24,322 nt of DNA, from NCBI GenBank assembly GCA_040289575.1, contig PSLL01000029.1, forward strand, positions 6,620 to 30,941. Reading direction: 5' to 3'. Source of the stretch: Candidatus Dadabacteria bacterium (GTDB lineage: Bacteria > Desulfobacterota_D > UBA1144 > Nemesobacterales > CSP1-2). The position numbers and the translations under genes were made by a program. Positions 4,321 to 13,161 of the stretch are shown one piece after another (position 1 is the stretch's first letter; every line of letters begins with the position of its first letter). Below the pieces are notes generated by a model that saw nothing but the letters and a program-made list of their open reading frames with translations, did not search any database and was not told where the DNA came from.

Positions 4321-4842
4321 ATGCCGAGAAAAGTAGATATTACATCTCTATTTTGTGGTCTTATGATAGCCGGAATAATCCTTTTTACCGCTTCATGTGG
4401 AAGTCAAAGGACTTTTCAAACCAAATCATCTCCCACGGGATTTAGGAAATACATAATTGTTGAGATTCCGGATTTTAAAATGTCTTCGAGTTCTGCCCCG
4501 ACAGATGCCACATGGAAGATTCCTAATGAAATAGCAGAGAGGCTGAAAAAGGAAGACATCTTTACAGGAGTGAGTCGTTCCCCTGTGAGTATAAACGATG
4601 GAGTCCTTGTTGTGGATGGAACACTAGATTTTACACCGGCGCCGTGGTATGAAAGAATAGTTGCCACACAAAGGATTATCGCTCATGTGCGTTTTATCAA
4701 TAAATCCGACAACAGCATTATAGCCGAGGCGACCTTTGAGGGGACGTCTAAGGGGGGGATTGTAAGCGGTGGTTTATATTTTGCCTATATGCGCTTAGCC
4801 GATGAGATTGTAGATTATATAAAACTAAATTACTCCTCCTAG
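4321..4842 (+). CDS. Lipoprotein of unknown function (DUF4410-like)
   Basis: GGAGGGG RBS; signal peptide with lipobox-like FTASC; the family call is by resemblance only. Confidence 0.7.
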   Translation: MPRKVDITSLFCGLMIAGIILFTASCGSQRTFQTKSSPTGFRKYIIVEIPDFKMSSSSAPTDATWKIPNEIAERLKKEDIFTGVSRSPVSINDGVLVVDGTLDFTPAPWYERIVATQRIIAHVRFINKSDNSIIAEATFEGTSKGGIVSGGLYFAYMRLADEIVDYIKLNYSS

Positions 4843-4944: not shown

Positions 4945-4973
4945 TTGACAGGATGTATTTTATGTATTACCTT
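4945..4973 (+). promoter_or_regulatory. Sigma70-type promoter of the fur/zur-znuACB operon
   Basis: TTGACA (4945-4950), 17-bp spacer, TACCTT (4968-4973). Confidence 0.7.
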
Positions 4974-4989
4974 TGAGAAAAATTCTCAA
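4973..4989. promoter_or_regulatory. Fur/Zur-type operator, copy 1 (TTGAGAAAAATTCTCAA)
   Basis: 7-3-7 palindrome starting on the last base of the -10 element; 16/17 identical to the copy at 8117-8133. Confidence 0.8.
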
Positions 4990-5064: not shown

Positions 5065-5544
5065 ATGGAATCTCGATGGAGCAAAGGTAAAATCAGGGTA
5101 TTTGAACACGGTCCAAGGTCAATCAAAACGCTTTTCCATAAGCGCGGGCTTAAGTGTACACCTCAGCGGCTTGCGGTGCTGAGTATTCTTGAAGAAAATT
5201 CAAGGCATTTTTCGGTAACGGAGATTCACAAGAAGGTAAAGAAGGTCCTTCCCGGGATGGGGCTTGCCACGGTTTATCGTGCACTTGAGGCGCTTGTGGA
5301 TTTGGGCTTGGTCGTAAGGGTTCACTTAGAGGATGGCTGTCATAACTATGCGGTTGCCCCGATTGGGCACCAGCACTCAATAGTGTGCGTCGGATGCAAC
5401 CGGGTGATGGATTTTGCTGAATGTCCGATTAGGAGTATATCGAGAAAATTGTCCAGACAAACCGGATTTACAATCCAGAAACATTTCTTACAACTCTATG
5501 GGAAATGCCGAACCTGTCAATTGTATGTAAGTGAAAGAAGGTAA
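5065..5544 (+). CDS. zur: Fur-family transcriptional repressor, probably zinc uptake regulator
   Basis: TPQRLAVL and LATVYRAL HTH motifs; two CxxC pairs (CVGC, CRTC); first gene of a Zn/Mn ABC operon. Confidence 0.8.
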   Translation: MESRWSKGKIRVFEHGPRSIKTLFHKRGLKCTPQRLAVLSILEENSRHFSVTEIHKKVKKVLPGMGLATVYRALEALVDLGLVVRVHLEDGCHNYAVAPIGHQHSIVCVGCNRVMDFAECPIRSISRKLSRQTGFTIQKHFLQLYGKCRTCQLYVSERR

Positions 5545-5551
5545 ATTTTAA

Positions 5552-6493
5552 ATGCCCCATATTCGTATCCCTCATAGCGTCTTTCCTCTTTCTATTATTG
5601 TTATTCTGCTTCTTGCACTTGTTGGCTATGTGCTGTTTGTAATTCCGTCAAAAGAGTCTATAAACGAGAAGAGTAAGCTACGTGTTACGGCTTCTTTTTA
5701 TCCTTTGTATTATTTTGCTACTCAAATCGCAGGAGATAAAGCGGAAGTCATTAATATAACCCCGGCAGGAGCCGAGCCTCATAATTACGAACCAACTGCG
5801 CGGGATATAGCACGAATTGAGAGCAGTGATCTTTTGATTCTTAATGGAGGCAATCTTGAGGCATGGGGGGATAAAATAAAAGACGAACTAACCGGTCGAC
5901 ATACGATAATTGTCATCGCAGGAAAGGGTCTGGTAGACAGACAGTTAATAGAAGAAGGAAAGGCAATTCAAGACCCTCATGTATGGCTCAGTCTCCCTCT
6001 CGCGAAGCAAGAAGTAGAAAAAATAGTTCAAGGATTCATTCAAGCCGATCCTGCAAATGCATCATTTTATCAGTCAAATGCGCAGTCCCTTAAGGATAAA
6101 CTCGACGCACTTGATAAAGAGTATAGGGAAGGATTACATTCATGCGTAAGCCGTGACATTGTTACCTCCCATGCGGCATTTGGCTACCTTGCACATCAGT
6201 ATCACTTAAATCAAATTGCTATTGCCGGAGTTTCTCCTGACGAAGAACCCAATACTAAGAAGCTTGCTGAAATATCCGATTTAGTAAAGGCGAAAGGCAT
6301 TAGAGTTATCTTTTTTGAGAATCTTATAAACCCCAAGTTATCGGAGACTATCGCCAACGAAACCGGTGCAAAGGCGCTTGTGCTTGACCCTATTGAGGGT
6401 ATTAGCAACAATGATATTAAGGCTGGGAAAAACTACTTCACTCAAATGGAGGCGAACCTTCATAATTTGCGAATCGCACTTCAATGCCAATAG
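5552..6493 (+). CDS. znuA: Zn/Mn ABC transporter substrate-binding protein (ZnuA/AdcA-like)
   Basis: ASFYPLY, EPHNYEP, DPHVWL, SHAAFGY and DPIEG motifs of cluster A-I metal-binding proteins; N-terminal hydrophobic anchor. Confidence 0.85.
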   Translation: MPHIRIPHSVFPLSIIVILLLALVGYVLFVIPSKESINEKSKLRVTASFYPLYYFATQIAGDKAEVINITPAGAEPHNYEPTARDIARIESSDLLILNGGNLEAWGDKIKDELTGRHTIIVIAGKGLVDRQLIEEGKAIQDPHVWLSLPLAKQEVEKIVQGFIQADPANASFYQSNAQSLKDKLDALDKEYREGLHSCVSRDIVTSHAAFGYLAHQYHLNQIAIAGVSPDEEPNTKKLAEISDLVKAKGIRVIFFENLINPKLSETIANETGAKALVLDPIEGISNNDIKAGKNYFTQMEANLHNLRIALQCQ

Positions 6494-7239
6494 CGAATCA
6501 TAAAGAAAATATCATAGAATTAAAAAATATATCGTTCTCGTATGGCGACGATACGGTTTTAAATAACCTGAACCTAGAGGTTCATAAAGGGGATTATCTC
6601 GGTATTATTGGTCCCAATGGCGGCGGAAAAACAACGCTCATTAAAATTATGCTTGGGCTTCTACACGCACGAGGGGAAATAAGGCTTTTTGGAAAAGATA
6701 TTCGCGAATTTAGGGAATGGTCAAAAATAGGATATGTTTCTCAAAGAGCCATCCAGATTGACACGAGTTTTCCCATAACCGTGACTGAGGTAGTAAGTAT
6801 GGGACGATATGCAATGAAAGGCATATTCCGCTTTCTTAATGCCGAAGATAGGAAAAAGGTTTTAGAATCATTAAGAGAAGTGGAGATGGATGGTTATCAG
6901 AACCGACTCATTGGAGATCTTTCTACGGGCCAACAGCAACGTGTATTTATTGCGCGGGCGCTTGTCGGAGAACCGGAGGTTATCGTGCTTGATGAACCGA
7001 CTGTCGGTGTTGATTTAAAAACACAAGAGCAGTTTTATGCGCTTTTGAGGAAGCTCAATCGTGAGAAGGATATAACCCTTATCTTGGCTTCTCATGATCT
7101 CGATGTGATTGAACGCGAAGCAACCGGGCTTATTTGTATCAATCGTTCTGTGGCATATTGCGGGTCGGTGAAAGGATTTAGAATGCACGAGAGCTATTCA
7201 GATTTCTATAAAGAAAGTATGAAGATTCATCATCACTAA
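6484..7239 (+). CDS. znuC: Zn/Mn ABC transporter ATPase
   Basis: Walker A GPNGGGKTT, signature LSTGQQQR, Walker B VIVLDEP, SHD H-loop, HHH C-terminus; overlaps the znuA stop. Confidence 0.85.
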   Translation: MPIANHKENIIELKNISFSYGDDTVLNNLNLEVHKGDYLGIIGPNGGGKTTLIKIMLGLLHARGEIRLFGKDIREFREWSKIGYVSQRAIQIDTSFPITVTEVVSMGRYAMKGIFRFLNAEDRKKVLESLREVEMDGYQNRLIGDLSTGQQQRVFIARALVGEPEVIVLDEPTVGVDLKTQEQFYALLRKLNREKDITLILASHDLDVIEREATGLICINRSVAYCGSVKGFRMHESYSDFYKESMKIHHH

Positions 7240-7241
7240 AA

Positions 7242-8057
7242 ATGTTTAATATCTTTCAATATGGATTCATTGTACGAGGCATAGAAGTAGGAATAGTCAT
7301 TGGTGTTATCGCGCCTCTAATAGGCATTTTTCTTATCCTTCGAAGATATGCATTAATCGCCGATGCCCTCGCTCACGTCTCGCTTGCGGGGGTTGCCCTG
7401 GGCCTCCTCTTGGGTTTAAATCCTCTTATTACTGGGATAGGTACTGCTGTTGCTTCTTCGGTTGTGGTCGAGCGCCTCCGCATTTCAAAAAGGGTGTATG
7501 CGGATTCCGCCCTTTCCATTTTTTTATCGGGCAGTCTCGCTCTCGCGATCGTTCTCATTAGCGTCGCGAAGGGCTTCAGCGTTGATCTTTTCAATTACCT
7601 TTTTGGAAGCATTGTTACTGTCAAAATTTCTGATCTCTATGTCATTTTAATATTCGGGGTTGTGGTTATCCTTTCTGTTCTCGCATTCTATAAAGAGCTT
7701 ATTTATATTACCTTTGATGAGGAGGCAGCGCAGGTTTCAGGTATCAATACTCGCCTCATTAATATGGTTCTCATAGTCCTTGCCGCATTCACCGTTTCGC
7801 TTGCGATTCCAATCGTCGGCGTCCTCCTTATTGCCGCGTTAGTGGTGATACCGGTTGTCACCGCAATTCAATTGAAAAAGAATTTCCTTGCTACGGTTAT
7901 TTATGCGGAGATTATTTCGGTACTATCGGTTATTATTGGAATTATTGGGTCTTTCTATTTTAATGTTCCCGCAGGAGGCGCGATTGTTCTTCTTACTATC
8001 ATTATTTTTGTCGTGGTGTTTTGGTATAAAACCACGGTGCATAAGGGTAAAAAGTAA
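7242..8057 (+). CDS. znuB: Zn/Mn ABC transporter permease
   Basis: DALAHVSLAG, YLFGSI and TFDEEAA motifs of the ABC-3 family; multiple TM segments. Confidence 0.85.
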   Translation: MFNIFQYGFIVRGIEVGIVIGVIAPLIGIFLILRRYALIADALAHVSLAGVALGLLLGLNPLITGIGTAVASSVVVERLRISKRVYADSALSIFLSGSLALAIVLISVAKGFSVDLFNYLFGSIVTVKISDLYVILIFGVVVILSVLAFYKELIYITFDEEAAQVSGINTRLINMVLIVLAAFTVSLAIPIVGVLLIAALVVIPVVTAIQLKKNFLATVIYAEIISVLSVIIGIIGSFYFNVPAGGAIVLLTIIIFVVVFWYKTTVHKGKK

Positions 8058-8089: not shown

Positions 8090-8117
8090 TTGACAATGTA
8101 GTTTTATACTTTATAAT
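8090..8117 (+). promoter_or_regulatory. Consensus sigma70 promoter of the second metal-uptake operon
   Basis: TTGACA (8090-8095), 16-bp spacer, TATAAT (8112-8117). Confidence 0.8.
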
Positions 8118-8133
8118 TGAGAAAATTTCTCAA
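8117..8133. promoter_or_regulatory. Fur/Zur-type operator, copy 2 (TTGAGAAAATTTCTCAA)
   Basis: Perfect 8-1-8 palindrome in the same position relative to -10 as copy 1. Confidence 0.85.
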
Positions 8134-8175
8134 ATATGAAAACTTAGTAAAAATGTGGCCAACAGACTAATATCT

Positions 8176-8529
8176 ATGGCGAAGCTAAATACATATATCT
8201 GGATAAAATTGAAAAGGGTCTCAGACATAGCTTTCTTAACCCTGATCATACTTTTTCTTCTTTCCTTGAGTTTTCATAATCATGCCTTTTGTTTTGATAC
8301 CTCTTCTATTAAGAAGGTTTCCCAATCAGAATCCAAATATCCAGGGCACTCTGAACAATTCTGTTCTGCATGTCGTCTATATGGAAATGTTAAATTACAT
8401 AACCCAATCAAGAATATTGATTTTGGCTTTTTTGGAATTGTAATAGCCTTTTTAAAACCTGATGTTTTAATCCCATCTTCATTTTTATCCCTAAAAAATT
8501 TCCCCCGTTCACCTCCGGTAATCCTCTGA
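8176..8529 (+). CDS. Small membrane protein with HxH, CxxC and C-terminal RSPP (DUF2946/CruR-like putative arrest peptide)
   Basis: TM segment IAFLTLIILFLLSLSF followed by HNH; HSEQFCSAC; ends FPRSPPVIL. Start is ATG 8176 or GTG 8155. Confidence 0.7.
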   Translation: MAKLNTYIWIKLKRVSDIAFLTLIILFLLSLSFHNHAFCFDTSSIKKVSQSESKYPGHSEQFCSACRLYGNVKLHNPIKNIDFGFFGIVIAFLKPDVLIPSSFLSLKNFPRSPPVIL

Positions 8530-8604
8530 GCGGTTCCGCTATTAATCAAGACTCAGACGGGTTAGTTTCATACAATTAGCCACTAATTACTTATTGGAGG
8601 TGAA
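8508..8604 (+). promoter_or_regulatory. Putative anti-SD/SD mRNA structure sequestering the RBS of the downstream gene
   Basis: TTCACCTCCGGTAA (8508-8521) pairs with TTATTGGAGGTGAA (8591-8604): 14 bp including 2 G-U. Inner stems are TCTGAG/CTCAGA (8525-8557) and GGTTAGTT/AATTAGCC (8560-8581). Confidence 0.7.
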
Positions 8605-8606
8605 GT

Positions 8607-9938
8607 ATGAGAATGCGATCAAAAGCCGGACATTTCGGCTTATATACGTCTATACCTACTATAGTGATATTGGTTTTTAGTTTGTTCTTTTCTCCAAGTA
8701 TGTGCAGGGAGGCTTGGAGCGACGAAAGAGAGGATATAAAAAAGGAAATACAAGAACTCCAAGAGCAAATGCAGACTATGCAGAAAAAGCTAGAAGAGCT
8801 TGAGCAGAAGAATAAAGAGCTAGAAGATGAGGCGAAAAAACAAAAAGAAGAAAAAGTAATCAGTCAACCAACCCCTCCTCCACCTCAAGAGGGCGGATTT
8901 GTTAAAGGGCTTGTCCAGAGCCTTAATCCAGATATAAGCGCTATTGGAATATTTTCTGCCGCGTATTTTTCCACAAAACACCCCCCTCATCGTATTGGAA
9001 CCGACCCTGAGAATACGGGAATTAACCTACAGGAGGTTGAACTTGGGTTTCAGAGTGTTGTAGACCCATACTTTAGAGCTGATAGCTTTTTTTCATTTGG
9101 CAGAGACGGTGTTGAAGTCGAAGAGGCTTATTTAACCACACTATCTCTTCCACTTAATCTACAGATAAGGGCAGGTAAAATGAGGAGTAAGTTTGGAAGG
9201 ATAAACCTTCAGCATACGCACGTTCAGGATTTTGTAGATATTCCTCTTCCCTCCGCGAGTTTTATAAACGGAGAGCTAAGCCCTGTAGGGGTAGAGCTTA
9301 ATTATCTTCTCCCGCTTCCCTGGTATGCGGAATTGAGCGGTTCTATAAATAGCCCTGAGGGGCAAGAGCCTACATTTGCACGTGATCAGGATACAAACAG
9401 AATAGATAGGCTTCTATATGTAGCCCATCTTTCAAATTTCTTTGAGATCTCAGACTCATTATCCGCAATTGTAGGTGGCTCTTTTGCAACGGGCTCTAAT
9501 GGCACGGCTGAGGGTAACCGCTCAAACCTCTATGGTGCTGACCTTTTTGTCAAGTATCGCCCTTTAGAAAACTCCTCATACCAGACGGTTAAGCTACAGG
9601 CTGAGTTCTTTTATAGGCAAAGTGAGATAATCGAGGGAAGCTTTAATGATTGGGGGGCGTATGCGTATATTATCGATCGTTTTACACAGAGATGGGATGC
9701 CGGATTCAGATTCGACTTTGTAAACAGTAACAAAAGATTTCCTTCTATACAAGAGGGAGAACCAGTCCCGGCTCCAAAGGAATTGCGTTACGCTGTGCTT
9801 CTTAGATTTAGTCCATCTGAATTCTCAAGGATAGCTCTTCAGTATGAGTTTGACAATCCAAGTATCAGGAGTAATTTCCATGCTGTTTTTCTTCAATTTC
9901 AATATGCAATCGGTGCCCACGGCGCGCATCCATTTTAA
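8607..9938 (+). CDS. Putative zinc-regulated outer-membrane beta-barrel (porin-like) with N-terminal coiled coil
   Basis: Signal peptide, E/K/Q-rich coiled coil, Pro-rich linker, NPDIS...QSVVDPYFRAD, alternating beta-strand pattern, C-terminal GAHGAHPF ending in Phe; SD GGAGGTG at 8596-8602. Confidence 0.7.
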   Translation: MRMRSKAGHFGLYTSIPTIVILVFSLFFSPSMCREAWSDEREDIKKEIQELQEQMQTMQKKLEELEQKNKELEDEAKKQKEEKVISQPTPPPPQEGGFVKGLVQSLNPDISAIGIFSAAYFSTKHPPHRIGTDPENTGINLQEVELGFQSVVDPYFRADSFFSFGRDGVEVEEAYLTTLSLPLNLQIRAGKMRSKFGRINLQHTHVQDFVDIPLPSASFINGELSPVGVELNYLLPLPWYAELSGSINSPEGQEPTFARDQDTNRIDRLLYVAHLSNFFEISDSLSAIVGGSFATGSNGTAEGNRSNLYGADLFVKYRPLENSSYQTVKLQAEFFYRQSEIIEGSFNDWGAYAYIIDRFTQRWDAGFRFDFVNSNKRFPSIQEGEPVPAPKELRYAVLLRFSPSEFSRIALQYEFDNPSIRSNFHAVFLQFQYAIGAHGAHPF

Positions 9939-9957: not shown

Positions 9958-10917
9958 ATGAGATTATATAAAGTTTTTCAATCTATAGCGTTACCCATTT
10001 GCTTAGTTTTACTCGGAGAGGCATTTCTGCTTGCTTTCGCTGAGGATGCATTAGCAAAGCCGAAGGTTGTTGGCTCACTTCCAGATTTTGCGTCAATAGC
10101 AGAGGAGATCGGAGGGGATAAGGTTGAAGTGATAAGCCTCGCAAAGGGATACCAAGCCCCCCACTTTGTAGATGGGAAGCCGAGCTTCATAGTCACTTTG
10201 AACAGGGCTGACTTGTTGATTCATAATGGTTTAGAATTAGAGATAGGTTGGCTTCCTCCGCTTATTACTGGGGCAAGAAACCCTAAAATTCTTCCCAATA
10301 ATATTGGCAATCTCGATTGCTCTACACTGATTTCAAATATCCTTGAGGTGCCTACCACAAAGATAGACCGAGGCATGGGGGACATTCATCCGGGCGGAAA
10401 TCCCCATTACATGCTCGATCCGAGAAATGGAATCGCGGTTGCAAGGGGGATTGCAGATAGGCTAAAACAAATTGACCCTAAGAATGCCTCTTACTACGAC
10501 GAACGTTTAGAGGGTTTTGCAAGGCGCCTTAGCGCAAAGATAAGGGAGTGGGATGAAAAACTCGCTCCTTATAGAGGAACCCAGATCGTTACATACCACA
10601 AGAGCTGGGTTTACTTCTCTAACTGGGCTGGATTTGAAGAGGTAGGGTATATAGAGCCAAAGCCAGGTATTCCGCCTTCGCCCTCTTATGTGGCCGACCT
10701 GATTGGGAGGATACAGAAGATGAATGTAAGGCTTGTCATAGCGGAGTCATTCTATCCCCAGAAGGTGCCGACTCTTATTGCACAAAAGGCAGGGGCTTCT
10801 TTTCTTACCCTGCCTTCAGAAGTAGGCGCGCGCGATGGGATAAATACATACTTTGATCTTTTTGATGTGATTGTTGGTGAAATTACATCTAAGTTGGCGA
10901 ATCACGGAAAAGGCTAG
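9958..10917 (+). CDS. Second Zn/Mn ABC substrate-binding protein
   Basis: AAGGAGGT RBS before ATG 9958; signal peptide; His ligand motifs PHF, DIHPGGNPHY and TYHKSW; EPKPGIPPSP. Confidence 0.85.
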   Translation: MRLYKVFQSIALPICLVLLGEAFLLAFAEDALAKPKVVGSLPDFASIAEEIGGDKVEVISLAKGYQAPHFVDGKPSFIVTLNRADLLIHNGLELEIGWLPPLITGARNPKILPNNIGNLDCSTLISNILEVPTTKIDRGMGDIHPGGNPHYMLDPRNGIAVARGIADRLKQIDPKNASYYDERLEGFARRLSAKIREWDEKLAPYRGTQIVTYHKSWVYFSNWAGFEEVGYIEPKPGIPPSPSYVADLIGRIQKMNVRLVIAESFYPQKVPTLIAQKAGASFLTLPSEVGARDGINTYFDLFDVIVGEITSKLANHGKG

Positions 10918-10927
10918 AGCTGATTTT

Positions 10928-10958
10928 GCAGAAGGGCAGGCGGGATAAGTCCTTCTGC
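10928..10958 (+). other. Intercistronic stem-loop between the SBP and ATPase genes
   Basis: GCAGAAGGGC / GTCCTTCTGC 10-bp stem (1 G-U) with an 11-nt loop and no U-tract. Confidence 0.55.
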
Positions 10959-10985
10959 GTATCATGTATTAAAAGGGAGATAAAA

Positions 10986-11750
10986 ATGGATCCATCTTTT
11001 CTAATAAAATTGGTAGGAGTTGTAATCGGATACGATAAAAGAGGATTGTTAGACCCTATAGACCTTTCTATTCAAAACAGGCAGTTTTGGGGAATAATTG
11101 GCCCAAACGGAGGCGGAAAAACGACTTTGCTGAAAACTATTTTGGGGCTTATCCCGCCTATAAGGGGAAAAGTAGAGTATGGGAAAGACCAAACTCTAAT
11201 ATTTGGGTATGTTCCCCAGCGCGAAAACTTTGATCACATATTTCCGATATCTGTTTCTGAGTTTGTTGCCATGGGGAGGTATATACGAATTCCGGTTGGC
11301 AGAAGGATTAAAAAGGAAGATCGGAGGGTTGTGATAGAGTGCCTTCGTAAGGTTGAGATTCCACATCTAAAGGACCGCCCATTCAGATCGCTCTCGGGGG
11401 GCGAAAAGCAGCGTACACTCATTGCCCATGCACTTGCCGGGGAACCGGATGTATTGATCCTTGATGAGCCCACGGCCTCAATGGATATTAAGGGGGAGAC
11501 TGCTATTATGGAATTAATAGAGAAAATAAAAGAGAAAGACAACCTCGCGATTCTTATGGTGAGTCATTTTCTGAACGCTGTTGCCAGATTTGCCGACCAT
11601 GTAGTTGTAATTGATAAAGATAGTAATATCTTTCGCGCAGGGACTATGAATGAGGTTTTTAATGATGAGACCTTAAGCAGAGTTTTTGGATTAGATGTAA
11701 CTGTAAACCAGGTTGAAGGTAAGGTGCGGATATATGCAACGGTTAGCTAA
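10986..11750 (+). CDS. Second Zn/Mn ABC transporter ATPase
   Basis: GGGAG RBS before ATG 10986; GPNGGGKTT, LSGGEKQR, LILDEP, VSH. Confidence 0.85.
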   Translation: MDPSFLIKLVGVVIGYDKRGLLDPIDLSIQNRQFWGIIGPNGGGKTTLLKTILGLIPPIRGKVEYGKDQTLIFGYVPQRENFDHIFPISVSEFVAMGRYIRIPVGRRIKKEDRRVVIECLRKVEIPHLKDRPFRSLSGGEKQRTLIAHALAGEPDVLILDEPTASMDIKGETAIMELIEKIKEKDNLAILMVSHFLNAVARFADHVVVIDKDSNIFRAGTMNEVFNDETLSRVFGLDVTVNQVEGKVRIYATVS

Positions 11751-11762
11751 AAGGAGCTATAT

Positions 11763-12248
11763 ATGACAGAGCAAACTACAATTAATCCCAATCAGCAAAT
11801 ACAGGGCTGGGTTATTGAGGCATTTAATTTGCCAAAGAAAACAGTGGTTGATATAAATAAGCGTGAATGCATCGAAGGGCAGCGCTCTTCAATGGATACT
11901 ATTATAACCGTTCATTCATGTAGAGATCACACACATGAATATACAATCCCTAAGCTTCCCAACAACATAAGATATGAGGATATAGAGCTGCTGAGAACCG
12001 GGAATGAACACGAACACCATATTTATAAAAAGAACACTGTTCTTGGTTACTTATTTCGGTTTTCCATCTGGTGGCTCAGTTTGTCGGGATTGTATATGAT
12101 GTTTGCTGCATGTCCATGTTGCGGGCAGGTTGGTTGCCCGGTTGGAGCGGGTACGGCCGGTCTTGTAGGCGGAGTCTTCGCCCTATGTAAGCAAAATTGG
12201 AGGGGGCCTATTAGATTTATATATGGTAGGTTGTTTAGAGGGAAGTAG
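11763..12248 (+). CDS. Hypothetical His/Cys-rich membrane protein
   Basis: AAGGAG RBS; HSCRDHTHE and HEHH clusters; CPCCGQVGCP between two hydrophobic segments. Confidence 0.7.
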   Translation: MTEQTTINPNQQIQGWVIEAFNLPKKTVVDINKRECIEGQRSSMDTIITVHSCRDHTHEYTIPKLPNNIRYEDIELLRTGNEHEHHIYKKNTVLGYLFRFSIWWLSLSGLYMMFAACPCCGQVGCPVGAGTAGLVGGVFALCKQNWRGPIRFIYGRLFRGK

Positions 12249-12294
12249 ATTGGGTTTGGCTAAAAAGTCTAGGTAAAGATTAGGAGCGATTATT

Positions 12295-13161
12295 TTGGAT
12301 ACTTTCTCATTTGGAGAGTTTATAAAGAGCTACTTTCTCTGGCGTGACCCTATGATTGTTGGGGCTGTATCTGGAGCTATATGCGGGTTTCTAGGAGTCT
12401 ATGTGGTTCTGCGCCGGATTGTTTTTGTAGGTGCGATGCTCTCTCAGGTCTCAAGCTTTGGTGTGGCCCTTGCCTTTTACCTTCAGGGGTTTACTGTTCT
12501 CAGTTTATTTAGGTCTTTAATTGATCCATTTACTTTGTCACTGATTATGACAGCGGTGGCCGTGCTTTTTTTTGCATTAAAGAGTGATTTTCTTCGTATA
12601 AGCCAGGAGGGAGCCATAGGGTTCGGGTATCTACTTGCTTCTGGAATCGTGGTGATTATAGGCAGCTTAATTACACGGGAGGCTCACGATATAGCCGACA
12701 TACTCTTTGGAAGCGCTGTTGTTGTGGATACGAAAGAGGTTTACATTGTGCCTGCCGTAGCCCTCCTTTCGATTGTCATTCACTGGGTGTTATTCAAGGA
12801 CTTTATATTTGTTTCTTTCGATCCCGAGACAGCAAGGTTGTTTAAGTATCCGGTGAGGGTACTAAACACAATTCTGCTTCTCACAATTGGGATTGTGATA
12901 GCCGTCACAACTCGCGCCCTCGGGGCGTTGCCTGTTTTTGCTTTAGTTGTTCTCCCTTCTCTTACCGCGCTTTTCTTAACTGAAAAGCTGAGATGGGTTT
13001 TTATACTCTCGGTTTTAATCGGAGTTTTATCTGCGGTGCTCGGTTATTATTTTTCTTTTGTCCTGTCTCTTCCAACAGGCGCTTCCATAACAACTTGCGC
13101 ATCTCTGTTTTTTATTTTAGGAACGGGATGGCAGGGGATTAGTCGTTTTATATGGACCTAA
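12295..13161 (+). CDS. Second Zn/Mn ABC transporter permease
   Basis: AGGAG RBS with TTG start; LGVYVVLRR, ILFGS and SFDPETA ABC-3 motifs. Confidence 0.85.
   Translation: MDTFSFGEFIKSYFLWRDPMIVGAVSGAICGFLGVYVVLRRIVFVGAMLSQVSSFGVALAFYLQGFTVLSLFRSLIDPFTLSLIMTAVAVLFFALKSDFLRISQEGAIGFGYLLASGIVVIIGSLITREAHDIADILFGSAVVVDTKEVYIVPAVALLSIVIHWVLFKDFIFVSFDPETARLFKYPVRVLNTILLLTIGIVIAVTTRALGALPVFALVVLPSLTALFLTEKLRWVFILSVLIGVLSAVLGYYFSFVLSLPTGASITTCASLFFILGTGWQGISRFIWT

Follow-up and report, generated by a model that had tools for sequence, protein, structure and literature searches.

A candidate metal-responsive nascent leader peptide in Candidatus Dadabacteria whose RSPP codons are predicted to mask the Shine-Dalgarno sequence of a porin-like gene

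Results and Discussion

A 24,322-nt stretch of DNA from a Candidatus Dadabacteria bacterium (the window; contig PSLL01000029.1, positions 6,620 to 30,941 of the forward strand, GenBank assembly GCA_040289575.1) encodes a small protein, here called the leader, immediately upstream of a gene for a porin-like barrel protein. The leader carries the tetrapeptide RSPP three residues from its end, and the codons for these four residues are complementary to the barrel gene's Shine-Dalgarno (SD) sequence. We propose, with moderate confidence, that the leader is a divergent regulatory nascent peptide of the CruR/CutF type which controls the barrel gene. The window and a comparison of 44 loci supply the evidence for this proposal.

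A conserved leader with candidate metal ligands and a C-terminal R-x-P-P

The leader stop codon lies at 8527 to 8529, and the sequence and ORF (open reading frame) list offer two candidate starts, GTG at 8155 (124 aa) and ATG at 8176 (117 aa). Because the same-genus loci L002 and L003 have stop codons 5′ of the equivalent ATG, the ATG is the likelier start, giving a leader ORF at 8176 to 8529 on the plus strand; residue numbers below are counted from the GTG. A hydrophobic helix (residues ~25 to 40) and a small-x-small site (SLS) are directly followed by H41-N-H43 (8275 to 8283), then by a putative metal site, H65-x4-C70-S-A-C73 (8347 to 8373), the conserved segment LIPSSFL, and the arrest-type motif R118-S-P-P121 (8506 to 8517; codons CGT TCA CCT CCG) with the tail VIL before the stop. 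We infer that signal peptidase would cleave at the SLS site, in the HNH region. Direct reading of the sequence and the ORF list confirmed the transmembrane segment, HNH, H-x4-CxxC, and C-terminal RSPP that an earlier note on this DNA had described.

A six-frame search detected the leader in 30 of 61 related genomes, and a profile search recovered it from 46 of 120 phylum genomes (by family: f1, 13/14; f2, 29/33; f3, 2/5; f6, 1/2). A word-index search with the leader matched 27 metagenomic proteins, while a profile search of 1.84 billion cluster representatives returned 43 at an E value of ≤0.001, 41 of which carry R-x-P-P near the C terminus (RSPP in 30, RAPP in 11). Five loci from a conserved-stretch search with alignment A1 are probably duplicates of genomes in the set.

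In a 28-sequence alignment with identities down to 23%, H41, H43, C70, C73, R118, P120, and P121 are invariant, H65 is conserved in at least 90% of the sequences, and the stretch from CxxC to RxPP is ungapped in 27 of the 28 rows. HxH is present at 44 of 44 loci, as is R[S/A]PP (RSPP at 34, RAPP at 10). The spacing from CxxC to RxPP is 44 residues at 40 loci and 43, 42, or 45 at the other four, and RxPP is followed by 2 residues at 37 loci, by 3 at four, and by 6, 10, and 13 at one each. Conservation is higher in the ~18 residues preceding RxPP (LIPxSFLxLxK) than in the protein's middle part, as one expects of a segment that would occupy the exit tunnel during arrest. The next gene encodes the same 430- to 490-aa barrel protein at all 44 loci, at a distance of 60 to 215 nt (median, 166); L043 shows the same leader-barrel arrangement, judged by eye.

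The RSPP codons are predicted to pair with the SD sequence of the barrel gene

In the window, positions 8508 to 8521 (TTCACCTCCGGTAA) are complementary to positions 8591 to 8604 (TTATTGGAGGTGAA) over 14 bp, 12 of them Watson-Crick and 2 G-U. The first strand, the anti-SD, includes the conserved core 8508 to 8518 and the 16S rRNA 3′ tail word UCACCUCC. The second includes the conserved core 8594 to 8604, GGAGG at 8596 to 8600, and an extended SD, GGAGGTGA, at 8596 to 8603, which ends three bases 5′ of the barrel-gene ATG at 8607. When positions 8480 to 8630 were folded with RNAfold, the helix appeared in both the minimum free energy (MFE) and centroid folds; the MFE fold alone also encloses two inner hairpins (8523 to 8581, comprising ~8523 to 8559 and ~8560 to 8581). 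Both the 14-bp pairing and the two hairpins of the earlier note were thus recovered for the window; the consensus fold of 10 relatives lacks the hairpins. The translation start region forms its best duplex with the 431 nt upstream of it (−21.8 kcal/mol) on the RSPP codons.

The 11-bp core helix (8508 to 8518 with 8594 to 8604) is kept across intergenic lengths of 60 to 215 nt. Homologs retain both elements on which the previously proposed switch depends, RxPP (44/44) and its complementarity to the SD. MFE folds pair the SD with the RxPP codons at 24 of 29 loci, and with 60 nt of extra upstream context, the ensemble probability of this pairing exceeds 0.5 at 38 of 44 loci (median, 0.98). RNAalifold applied to ten f1 sequences returned exactly the 11-bp helix and nothing else. 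Counting from the first base of the Arg codon, positions 2 to 12 pair at 30, 37, 41, 37, 44, 44, 38, 44, 43, 38, and 32 of the 44 loci, respectively, and the neighboring positions pair at 1 to 23. In alignment A3, 88.6% of 483 cells are paired, versus 38 to 52% in slid registers, and the covariation score is 0.192, versus 0.140 ± 0.013 in shuffles (0/500 reach 0.192). Since the loci are phylogenetically related, the shuffle-based numbers overstate independence; counts of one locus per genus, given below, partly address this.

The codons of the motif are strongly biased toward pairing with the SD, showing selection at synonymous sites. The first Pro is CCT at 38 of 44 loci (12.4 expected), the third base of the second Pro codon is a purine at 40 (20.6 expected), the third base of the Ser/Ala codon is a purine at 37 (22.5 expected), and Arg is CGN at 41 (11.5 expected). 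CGT or CGC accounts for 35 of the 44 motif Arg codons, and AGR for ~74% of Arg codons in the same loci. A conserved control Pro 11 codons upstream is encoded by CCA at 13 loci, CCT at 13, CCG at 9, and CCC at 3. With one locus per genus (n = 18), the counts are CCT 14, Pro purine 17, Ser/Ala purine 15, and Arg CGN 16 (binomial P values of 5e-3 to 5e-8). Each of these biases favors pairing with GGAGGTGA plus a purine.

The bases around the SD follow the same pattern. GGAGG precedes the barrel gene at the analyzed loci and the full GGAGGTGA does so at most, by count of rows; it is flanked by T or C on its 5′ side and by A or G on its 3′ side. These flanks pair with the leader at 38, 32, and 30 of 44 loci (CG 13, UA 10, UG 6; GU 15, AU 13, GC 10). 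The 16S rRNA 3′ end is missing from the window's assembly, and relatives were used instead; the canonical tail GGATCACCTCCTT was found in 5 of 5. Read against this tail, the SD flanks would not extend pairing to the ribosome. Because they pair with the leader and would not pair with the 16S tail, the flanks appear to answer to the leader rather than to the ribosome.

These data bear on the possibility that the complementarity has no function and simply follows from a conserved Pro-Pro (CCN CCN) lying near a strong SD. CCUCC is a natural reading of Pro-Pro, the GGAGG/CCUCC core cannot show covariation because it never varies, and the window taken alone is only modestly significant. Yet codon choice is far from both the background and the control Pro, RSPP is spelled with different codons in the genome's other leaders of this kind, the flanks pair with the leader though free of rRNA constraint, and the 8-nt SD is rare in this genome: GGAGGTGA precedes 6 of 2,036 long ORFs in the 3.06-Mb assembly that carries the window (G000), and GGAGG precedes 448. 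We consider a functionless by-product very unlikely.

A proposed switch at the barrel-gene start

The helix and the leader suggest the following sequence of events. A Fur-family repressor would set transcription from a promoter at 8090 to 8117, and in the transcript the SD and start region of the porin-like gene would be held in an 11- to 14-bp helix, the other strand of which is formed by the RSPP codons. By analogy with CruR, a ribosome translating the leader would pause while its P site holds Pro120 (CCT, 8512 to 8514) and its A site Pro121 (CCG). On either side, a bacterial ribosome occupies about a dozen bases or more, and the anti-SD strand, 8508 to 8521, lies within ~9 nt either side of the P-site codon; the footprint of the stalled ribosome would span the whole strand and leave the SD free while the pause lasts. 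At that moment the ~44 residues between the stall site and CxxC would fill the exit tunnel and translocon, and because of this separation HxH, His, and CxxC should have just emerged on the periplasmic side. Metal binding or folding at these residues could alter the pull on the chain and hence the length of the pause. When metal is scarce, a long pause would allow translation of the porin and probably of the distal ATP-binding cassette (ABC) genes; when metal is present, the stall would be released, the helix would re-form, and translation would drop.

The analysis shows the anatomy and conservation of the leader, the conserved helix with its synonymous-site selection, the duplicated operator, and the porin-like fold; the stall, export of the leader, metal binding, which metal it is (Zn or Ni/Co), and in which direction the response runs are what we infer. 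The polarity of CruR, in which metal releases the stall and expression falls, seems the more sensible one for an uptake module; the polarity of CutF may apply instead. Modeling is consistent with the proposed effect of a stalled ribosome. With covered bases removed, the median energy needed to open the start region drops from 13.1 to 7.5 kcal/mol for a ribosome on RxPP, by more than 3 kcal/mol at 33 of 44 loci, and is 12.7 kcal/mol for a ribosome placed 40 nt upstream.

More tentatively, and with distinctly less confidence than we attach to regulation by the leader as such, we suggest that the arrest motif and the anti-SD form a single dual-coded element, in which CGY-UCR-CCU-CCR spells both R-S-P-P and a mimic of the 16S tail (UCACCUCC), and that the leader is a non-copper (Zn or Ni/Co) periplasmic sensor, acting through a His2Cys2(+His) site, that would form a second, posttranscriptional tier of a Fur-family regulon gating a porin and an ABC importer. 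If the element is dual coded, the helix may have shaped the lineage's choice of Ser rather than Ala in the motif, since UCA, unlike GCA, gains a further pair with GGAGGUGA.

Several observations weigh against the switch proposed for the leader. In the window, the fold of 151 nt is unexceptional (z = −1.57; 14 of 200 shuffles fold as well), and the −21.8-kcal/mol duplex is equaled in 24 of 2,000 dinucleotide shuffles of the 431 upstream bases; on these two numbers, the window alone is only modestly beyond chance, and the comparative data carry the case. With RxPP masked, the SD is unpaired with a median probability of only 0.21, and the opening energy in the window falls only from 15.3 to 11.0 kcal/mol. 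The SD favors other partners at 6 of 44 loci. Covariation, one of the checks proposed in the earlier note, is present in the overall score, but strict double-sided changes are weak: 3 pairs versus 2.1 in shuffles (173/500 reach this number) and 16 cells versus 9.9 (58/500), neither significant. Variation is absent from most of the helix, and coding and rRNA pairing place further constraints on both strands. AlphaFold gave a poor model of the leader (predicted local distance difference test score [pLDDT], 64.7), and the geometry of the metal site is not derivable from it. No member of the family (0/28) matches the DUF2946 model PF11162 at an E value of ≤10. ApdA and ApdP variants with RSPP arrest only partly, as described in PMC7897499 and PMC12992588. 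In one genus (L014, L017, L022, L041, L042, and L043), a local anti-SD, CUCCGGAA, lies ~25 nt 5′ of the SD, where predicted folds show it in competition with the RSPP codons.

In this CUCCGGAA clade, the probability that the SD is paired with the RxPP window ranges from 0.00 to 0.93, and the Arg-Ser codons (CGCUC) have a further complement in GAGCG, at and following the AUG, which hints at a three-strand switch. The ~160- to 215-nt spacers of one f2 genus (L013, L015, L021, L024, L025, L028, L038 to L040, and L046) have in common long blocks, such as the one around CCGGAAUGGCGGUAUCGAACCCGCUUCGAUC, that are conserved and strongly structured; three of these loci were scanned and gave no Rfam match. 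Because Rfam at permissive thresholds gave no family for 10 loci, no known riboswitch lies in the intergenic regions of the loci scanned.

Coupling without a regulated stall is the first alternative to be weighed. In plain structure-mediated translational coupling, any ribosome reading or terminating on the leader would open the helix, RSPP would only slow the ribosome, and the His/Cys residues would serve a separate role of the mature small protein, for example, as a transporter accessory. Because the helix puts the leader stop beside the SD and AUG, the barrel would be translated in proportion to the leader. The stop lies 2 to 3 codons after RxPP at 41 of 44 loci, so that a terminating ribosome would also cover the anti-SD; in most relatives the leader is itself coupled to an upstream ATPase gene via a TAATG overlap; RSPP is a weaker arrest motif than RAPP in the contexts for which tests are described; and the authors of the CutF study could not tell a stalled from a second ribosome as the initiator (10.1101/2025.02.05.636593). 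What coupling has no need of are the invariant R-x-P-P, the 18 conserved preceding residues, and the fixed 44-residue spacing, which are hallmarks of arrest peptides, and RSPP is described as being among the most avoided tetrapeptides of bacterial proteomes (PMC12992588). We regard coupling alone as unlikely.

A regulated stall could also act on transcription. As in CruR, the stalled ribosome would shield the transcript, and its release would lead to Rho termination in the intergenic region, with the SD helix being secondary. This is the mode demonstrated for the closest architectural relative, which also heads an outer membrane uptake gene (PMC9426467), and the 150- to 215-nt spacers of most relatives are moderately C rich (C, 0.30 to 0.34; G, 0.20 to 0.26), with a median C/G ratio over all loci of 1.44. 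The 64-nt spacer of the window, in contrast, has a C content of 0.22 and a G content of 0.17, the intergenic regions are predicted to be highly structured, and synonymous-site selection for SD complementarity would be left unexplained. We judge Rho control to be quite unlikely as the main output; the two modes are compatible, not exclusive.

Relation to known arrest leaders

CruR of Bordetella pertussis (BP2923, DUF2946) is described as having RAPP three residues before its C terminus, 45 intervening residues, and a spacing conserved within 1 to 2 residues (PMC9426467; Roy et al. 2022), and as stalling with one Pro codon in the P site and the other in the A site (PMC12992588). The present leader resembles CruR, as described there, in being small, with an export-type N terminus, CxxC, R-x-P-P 2 to 3 residues before the stop, and a spacing of 44 to 45 residues, and in heading an operon for an outer membrane uptake protein; the proposed logic, in which metal relieves the stall and shuts uptake, is likewise shared. 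CxxC is invariant in the family, R[S/A]PP is present at 44 of 44 loci, and the spacing is 42 to 45 residues in all. The CruR/CutF-type architecture claimed by the earlier note therefore stands, with a Cys/His site, an export-type N terminus, RxPP 2 to 3 residues before the stop, and a spacing of 44 versus 45. The differences are equally clear. CruR has RAPP and a copper ligand, whereas the leader family mostly has RSPP and an invariant HxH; the output of CruR is Rho-dependent termination in a 162-nt GC-rich spacer, whereas SD masking is proposed here; and CruR acts on a TonB-dependent transporter, where the leader family would have as targets a porin-like barrel and a ZnuABC-type importer.

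CruR also matches PF11162 and the leader family does not. Searches of the leader against Pfam and NCBIfam returned no family, and the window protein has no PF11162 match at an E value of ≤1. In G000 and in the 120 phylum genomes, no protein exceeded the PF11162 cutoff (gathering score, 23.7 bits). The comparison of the leader with DUF2946 that the earlier note suggested was, in this respect, negative. Only the two weakest of the 28 representatives scanned reach PF11162, below threshold, with E values of 0.002 (19.3 bits) and 0.1; hhalign aligns the family profile to one of these two with a probability of 95.7%, and the rank-7 cluster of the ESM Atlas is 36% DUF2946. A word-index search seeded with P0068 returned only P0068. 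The leader family appears to be, at best, a distant relative of DUF2946.

CutF, from the Rhodobacter capsulatus cutFOG operon, is a precedent for the proposed output: its stall melts a stem-loop over the cutO SD, as described in 10.1101/2025.02.05.636593 and PMC9973294. Here too, a nascent exported leader is proposed, whose stalled ribosome would open an mRNA structure shielding the SD of the next gene. CxxxC, a PPP motif, a copper-induced stall, and a detoxifying oxidase as the target are CutF's own (PMC9973294, Ozturk et al. 2023). Its anti-SD is described as lying in an intergenic stem-loop (the SLm mutant changes CTTC), whereas the anti-SD of the leader lies in the arrest codons and closes a loop of 60 to 215 nt. 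The leader has the features of the operational CutF-like filter of Ozturk et al. 2023: 117 to 124 aa, PP three residues from the end, and a 77-nt spacer, with the signal peptide judged from the hydrophobic helix and small-x-small site only. Among 5,334 CutF-like proteins in 29 clusters, those with HupE/UreJ neighbors led these authors to suggest some as nickel or cobalt sensors (PMC9973294).

Like the monitoring substrates SecM-secA, MifM-yidC2, and VemP-secDF, the leader combines a C-terminal arrest-type sequence in a putatively exported protein with SD exposure that, here, is proposed to depend on the stall, and the sequence and predicted folds place the SD-sequestering helix within reach of a ribosome at RSPP, as in SecM- and CutF-type leaders. 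SecM, MifM, and VemP sense translocation or insertion force, regulate the export machinery, and lack metal-ligand motifs. The present leader might likewise be released by translocon pulling alone and report export capacity rather than metal. It has an N-terminal hydrophobic helix, the first RAPP-like leaders were found upstream of sec and yidC genes, and three other RSPP leaders of G000 are without Cys/His motifs. Such a role would account neither for the invariance of HxH and CxxC nor for a linkage solely to metal uptake genes under a candidate Fur-family operator, and no sec, yidC, or bam gene lies downstream. We hold an export monitor to be very unlikely.

ApdA, ApdP, and the RAPP/RGPP leaders (Fujiwara et al. 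2024, 2025) share with the leader family R-x-P-P near the C terminus of a small secreted or membrane protein and a codirectional downstream gene. The same group counts RSPP among the RAPP-like motifs and as strongly underrepresented in proteomes (Fujiwara et al., PMC12992588). Their survey of downstream gene classes deals with RAPP and RGPP only, and "zinc," "nickel," and "porin" have 0 occurrences in that text.

The kind of system is thus already known, because the CruR/DUF2946 architecture, the CutF output, the CutF-like clusters, and the listing of RSPP precede this work. A search of the literature by titles and abstracts, excluding the supplementary cluster tables of PMC9973294, found no account of the leader family or of a zinc or nickel version. 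What appears to be new is a family that neither the Pfam model nor the Pseudomonadota includes, in which putative ligands of the His2Cys2 type are invariant; an uptake context, predicted from the gene order, of a porin plus ZnuABC under Fur regulation; and an anti-SD that would consist of the arrest codons themselves and close the entire intergenic region, with comparative evidence for the helix. Metal-sensing nascent leaders are documented experimentally for copper only (CruR and CutF), and a wider role has been a prediction from gene neighborhoods; the family adds a candidate, well conserved and found beyond the Pseudomonadota, whose uptake operon would be of the Zn or Ni/Co type and also under a Fur-family repressor. 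It also indicates that Pfam DUF2946 underdetects the class and that some lineages use RSPP as their working motif in place of RAPP or RGPP, a point to consider when whole genomes are searched for arrest peptides.

RSPP leaders elsewhere in the genome and phylum

In G000, RAPP and RGPP are absent from 369,900 sampled residues of long frames, and at least four additional small membrane ORFs terminate in RSPP followed by three residues (C20, C28, C65, and C104; L064 to L067). Their RSPP codons are AGG TCT CCT CCT, AGA TCA CCG CCT, AGA TCC CCT CCT, and CGT TCT CCT CCA. Because these four leaders use different codons, RSPP as such does not demand those of the window.

The C104 leader is His rich after its membrane helix and lies 97 nt 5′ of the gene for a 297-aa secreted protein, the first of a putative copper operon that continues with CopC, CopD, Cu/Zn superoxide dismutase (SOD), and VKOR. 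Its sequence GTTCTCCTCC pairs with its own SD, GGAGGAGAAC, through 10 Watson-Crick pairs (−20.2 kcal/mol). TCT stands opposite ..AGA.. in C104, versus TCA opposite ..TGA.. in the window, which is a compensated difference between two paralogous systems. On the tentative dual-coded reading, the design would be reused in this copper operon with compensating changes and may be a general module in this candidate phylum. With this compensating paralog, the synonymous-site selection, and 44 natural variants of the helix at hand, the RNA output of the family is unusually explicit, and the mechanism is directly testable with a few synonymous and compensatory mutants. The other three leaders pair with their own SDs at −18.1, −9.9, and −9.6 kcal/mol; C20 and C65 precede paralogous proteins of ~150 to 200 aa, and C28 precedes a sulfotransferase-like protein.

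In a related genome (G007), L032:1399-1812 (minus strand) encodes a 137-aa secreted His/Cys-rich protein (CFSCCCCY) with the C terminus VRSPPAVC, just 3′ of an ORF that reads as TonB-like by sequence alone. It is the sole subthreshold PF11162 match in the phylum (21.2 bits) and aligns to the leader family over its last 18 residues only (hhalign probability, 6%). It is probably a third type of RSPP leader in the lineage.

Operon context and candidate metals

The barrel gene (8607 to 9938, plus strand) encodes a 443-aa secreted protein with a signal or transmembrane helix, a coiled coil, and ~16 β strands. Searches of Pfam and of PDB sequences returned no match for it. A model built from a 29-sequence alignment (pLDDT, 57) shows the coiled coil followed by ~16 strands, and its top Foldseek matches are OmpT, OprP, OprO, DcaP, and MOMP (E values of 1e-9 to 1e-6; template modeling scores of 0.35 to 0.59). 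The previous description of this gene as a porin or channel agrees with the model, which folds like a 16-strand porin and has porins as its best matches.

Two uptake systems flank the leader-barrel pair, both on the plus strand. The first (5552 to 8057) is of the ZnuA/ABC ATPase/ABC-3 permease type: ZnuA is encoded at 5552 to 6493 (PF01297; E value, 2.2e-82), and 6484 to 7239 and 7242 to 8057 would encode the ATPase and permease, respectively, from their translations. The second (9958 to 13161) comprises genes for a ZnuA-family binding protein (9958 to 10917), an ABC ATPase (10926 to 11750), a 161-aa His/Cys-rich protein (11763 to 12248), and an ABC-3 permease (12295 to 13161). The leader-barrel-ZnuA-ATPase-permease module is kept in 3 of 4 relatives scanned with Pfam; in the fourth, L057, the ZnuA gene was not found.

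The upstream context differs among relatives (f2 and f3 loci L054 to L063; G022, G057, G015, G051, G093, G047, G028, and G023). In f2, the module follows Fur-CbiM-CbiQ-ABC ATPase, and the leader overlaps the ATPase stop via TAATG; a gene for Ni-containing SOD lies near the module in L054, 3′ of it. In f3 (L060), the context is Fur-ZIP, with a ZIP transporter gene replacing CbiMQO, and other f1 loci have an unrelated dehydrogenase and a separate promoter. The leader is the first ORF after the promoter in the window, as originally described, but not in most relatives, where it is coupled to the upstream ABC ATPase gene. The second binding protein of the window is a distant member of the ZnuA/MntC/PsaA family, with Zn, Mn, and Fe binders in the PDB matching at similar E values. 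Given these differing upstream contexts and a binding protein no closer to Zn binders than to Mn or Fe binders, the previous assignment to Zn/Mn is not established; Zn and Ni/Co would be the leading candidates.

The promoter and the Fur-family gene

A σ70-type promoter, TTGACA-16-TATAAT, lies at 8090 to 8117 on the plus strand and is the sole 12/12 match between 4800 and 13800. A palindrome at 8117 to 8133 (TTGAGAAAATTTCTCAA) overlaps its −10 element and the likely transcription start, and a first copy (TTGAGAAAAATTCTCAA) is found at 4973 to 4989, 5′ of a Fur-family metalloregulator gene (5065 to 5544, plus strand). At ≤1 mismatch, the 3.06-Mb assembly contains no sites other than these two 17-bp palindromes. 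At ≤3 mismatches, 4 matches were obtained (two sites, both strands), versus 0.25 expected, and 0 of 100 shuffles reach 4. L002 and L003 have similar palindromes after TATAAT. The palindrome is a candidate operator of the Fur-family regulator. NCBIfam PerR, Fur, and Zur models match the regulator with E values of 1.7e-29 to 1e-13, all specific models below their curated cutoffs, so that its type within the family is not assignable. Of the Fur/Zur control proposed earlier, a Fur-family gene and a duplicated candidate operator are present.

Two neighboring ORFs lack a known family. The 161-aa protein of the second uptake system is rich in His in its middle part (HEHH, HTHE) and contains CPCCGQVGCP in a hydrophobic segment at the C terminus; it matches no Pfam or NCBIfam family, and in the f2 and f3 relatives with ORFs listed, no ORF occupies the position of its gene. 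A 173-aa ORF at 4321 to 4842 on the plus strand, likewise without a Pfam or NCBIfam family, lies directly 5′ of the first operator and promoter.

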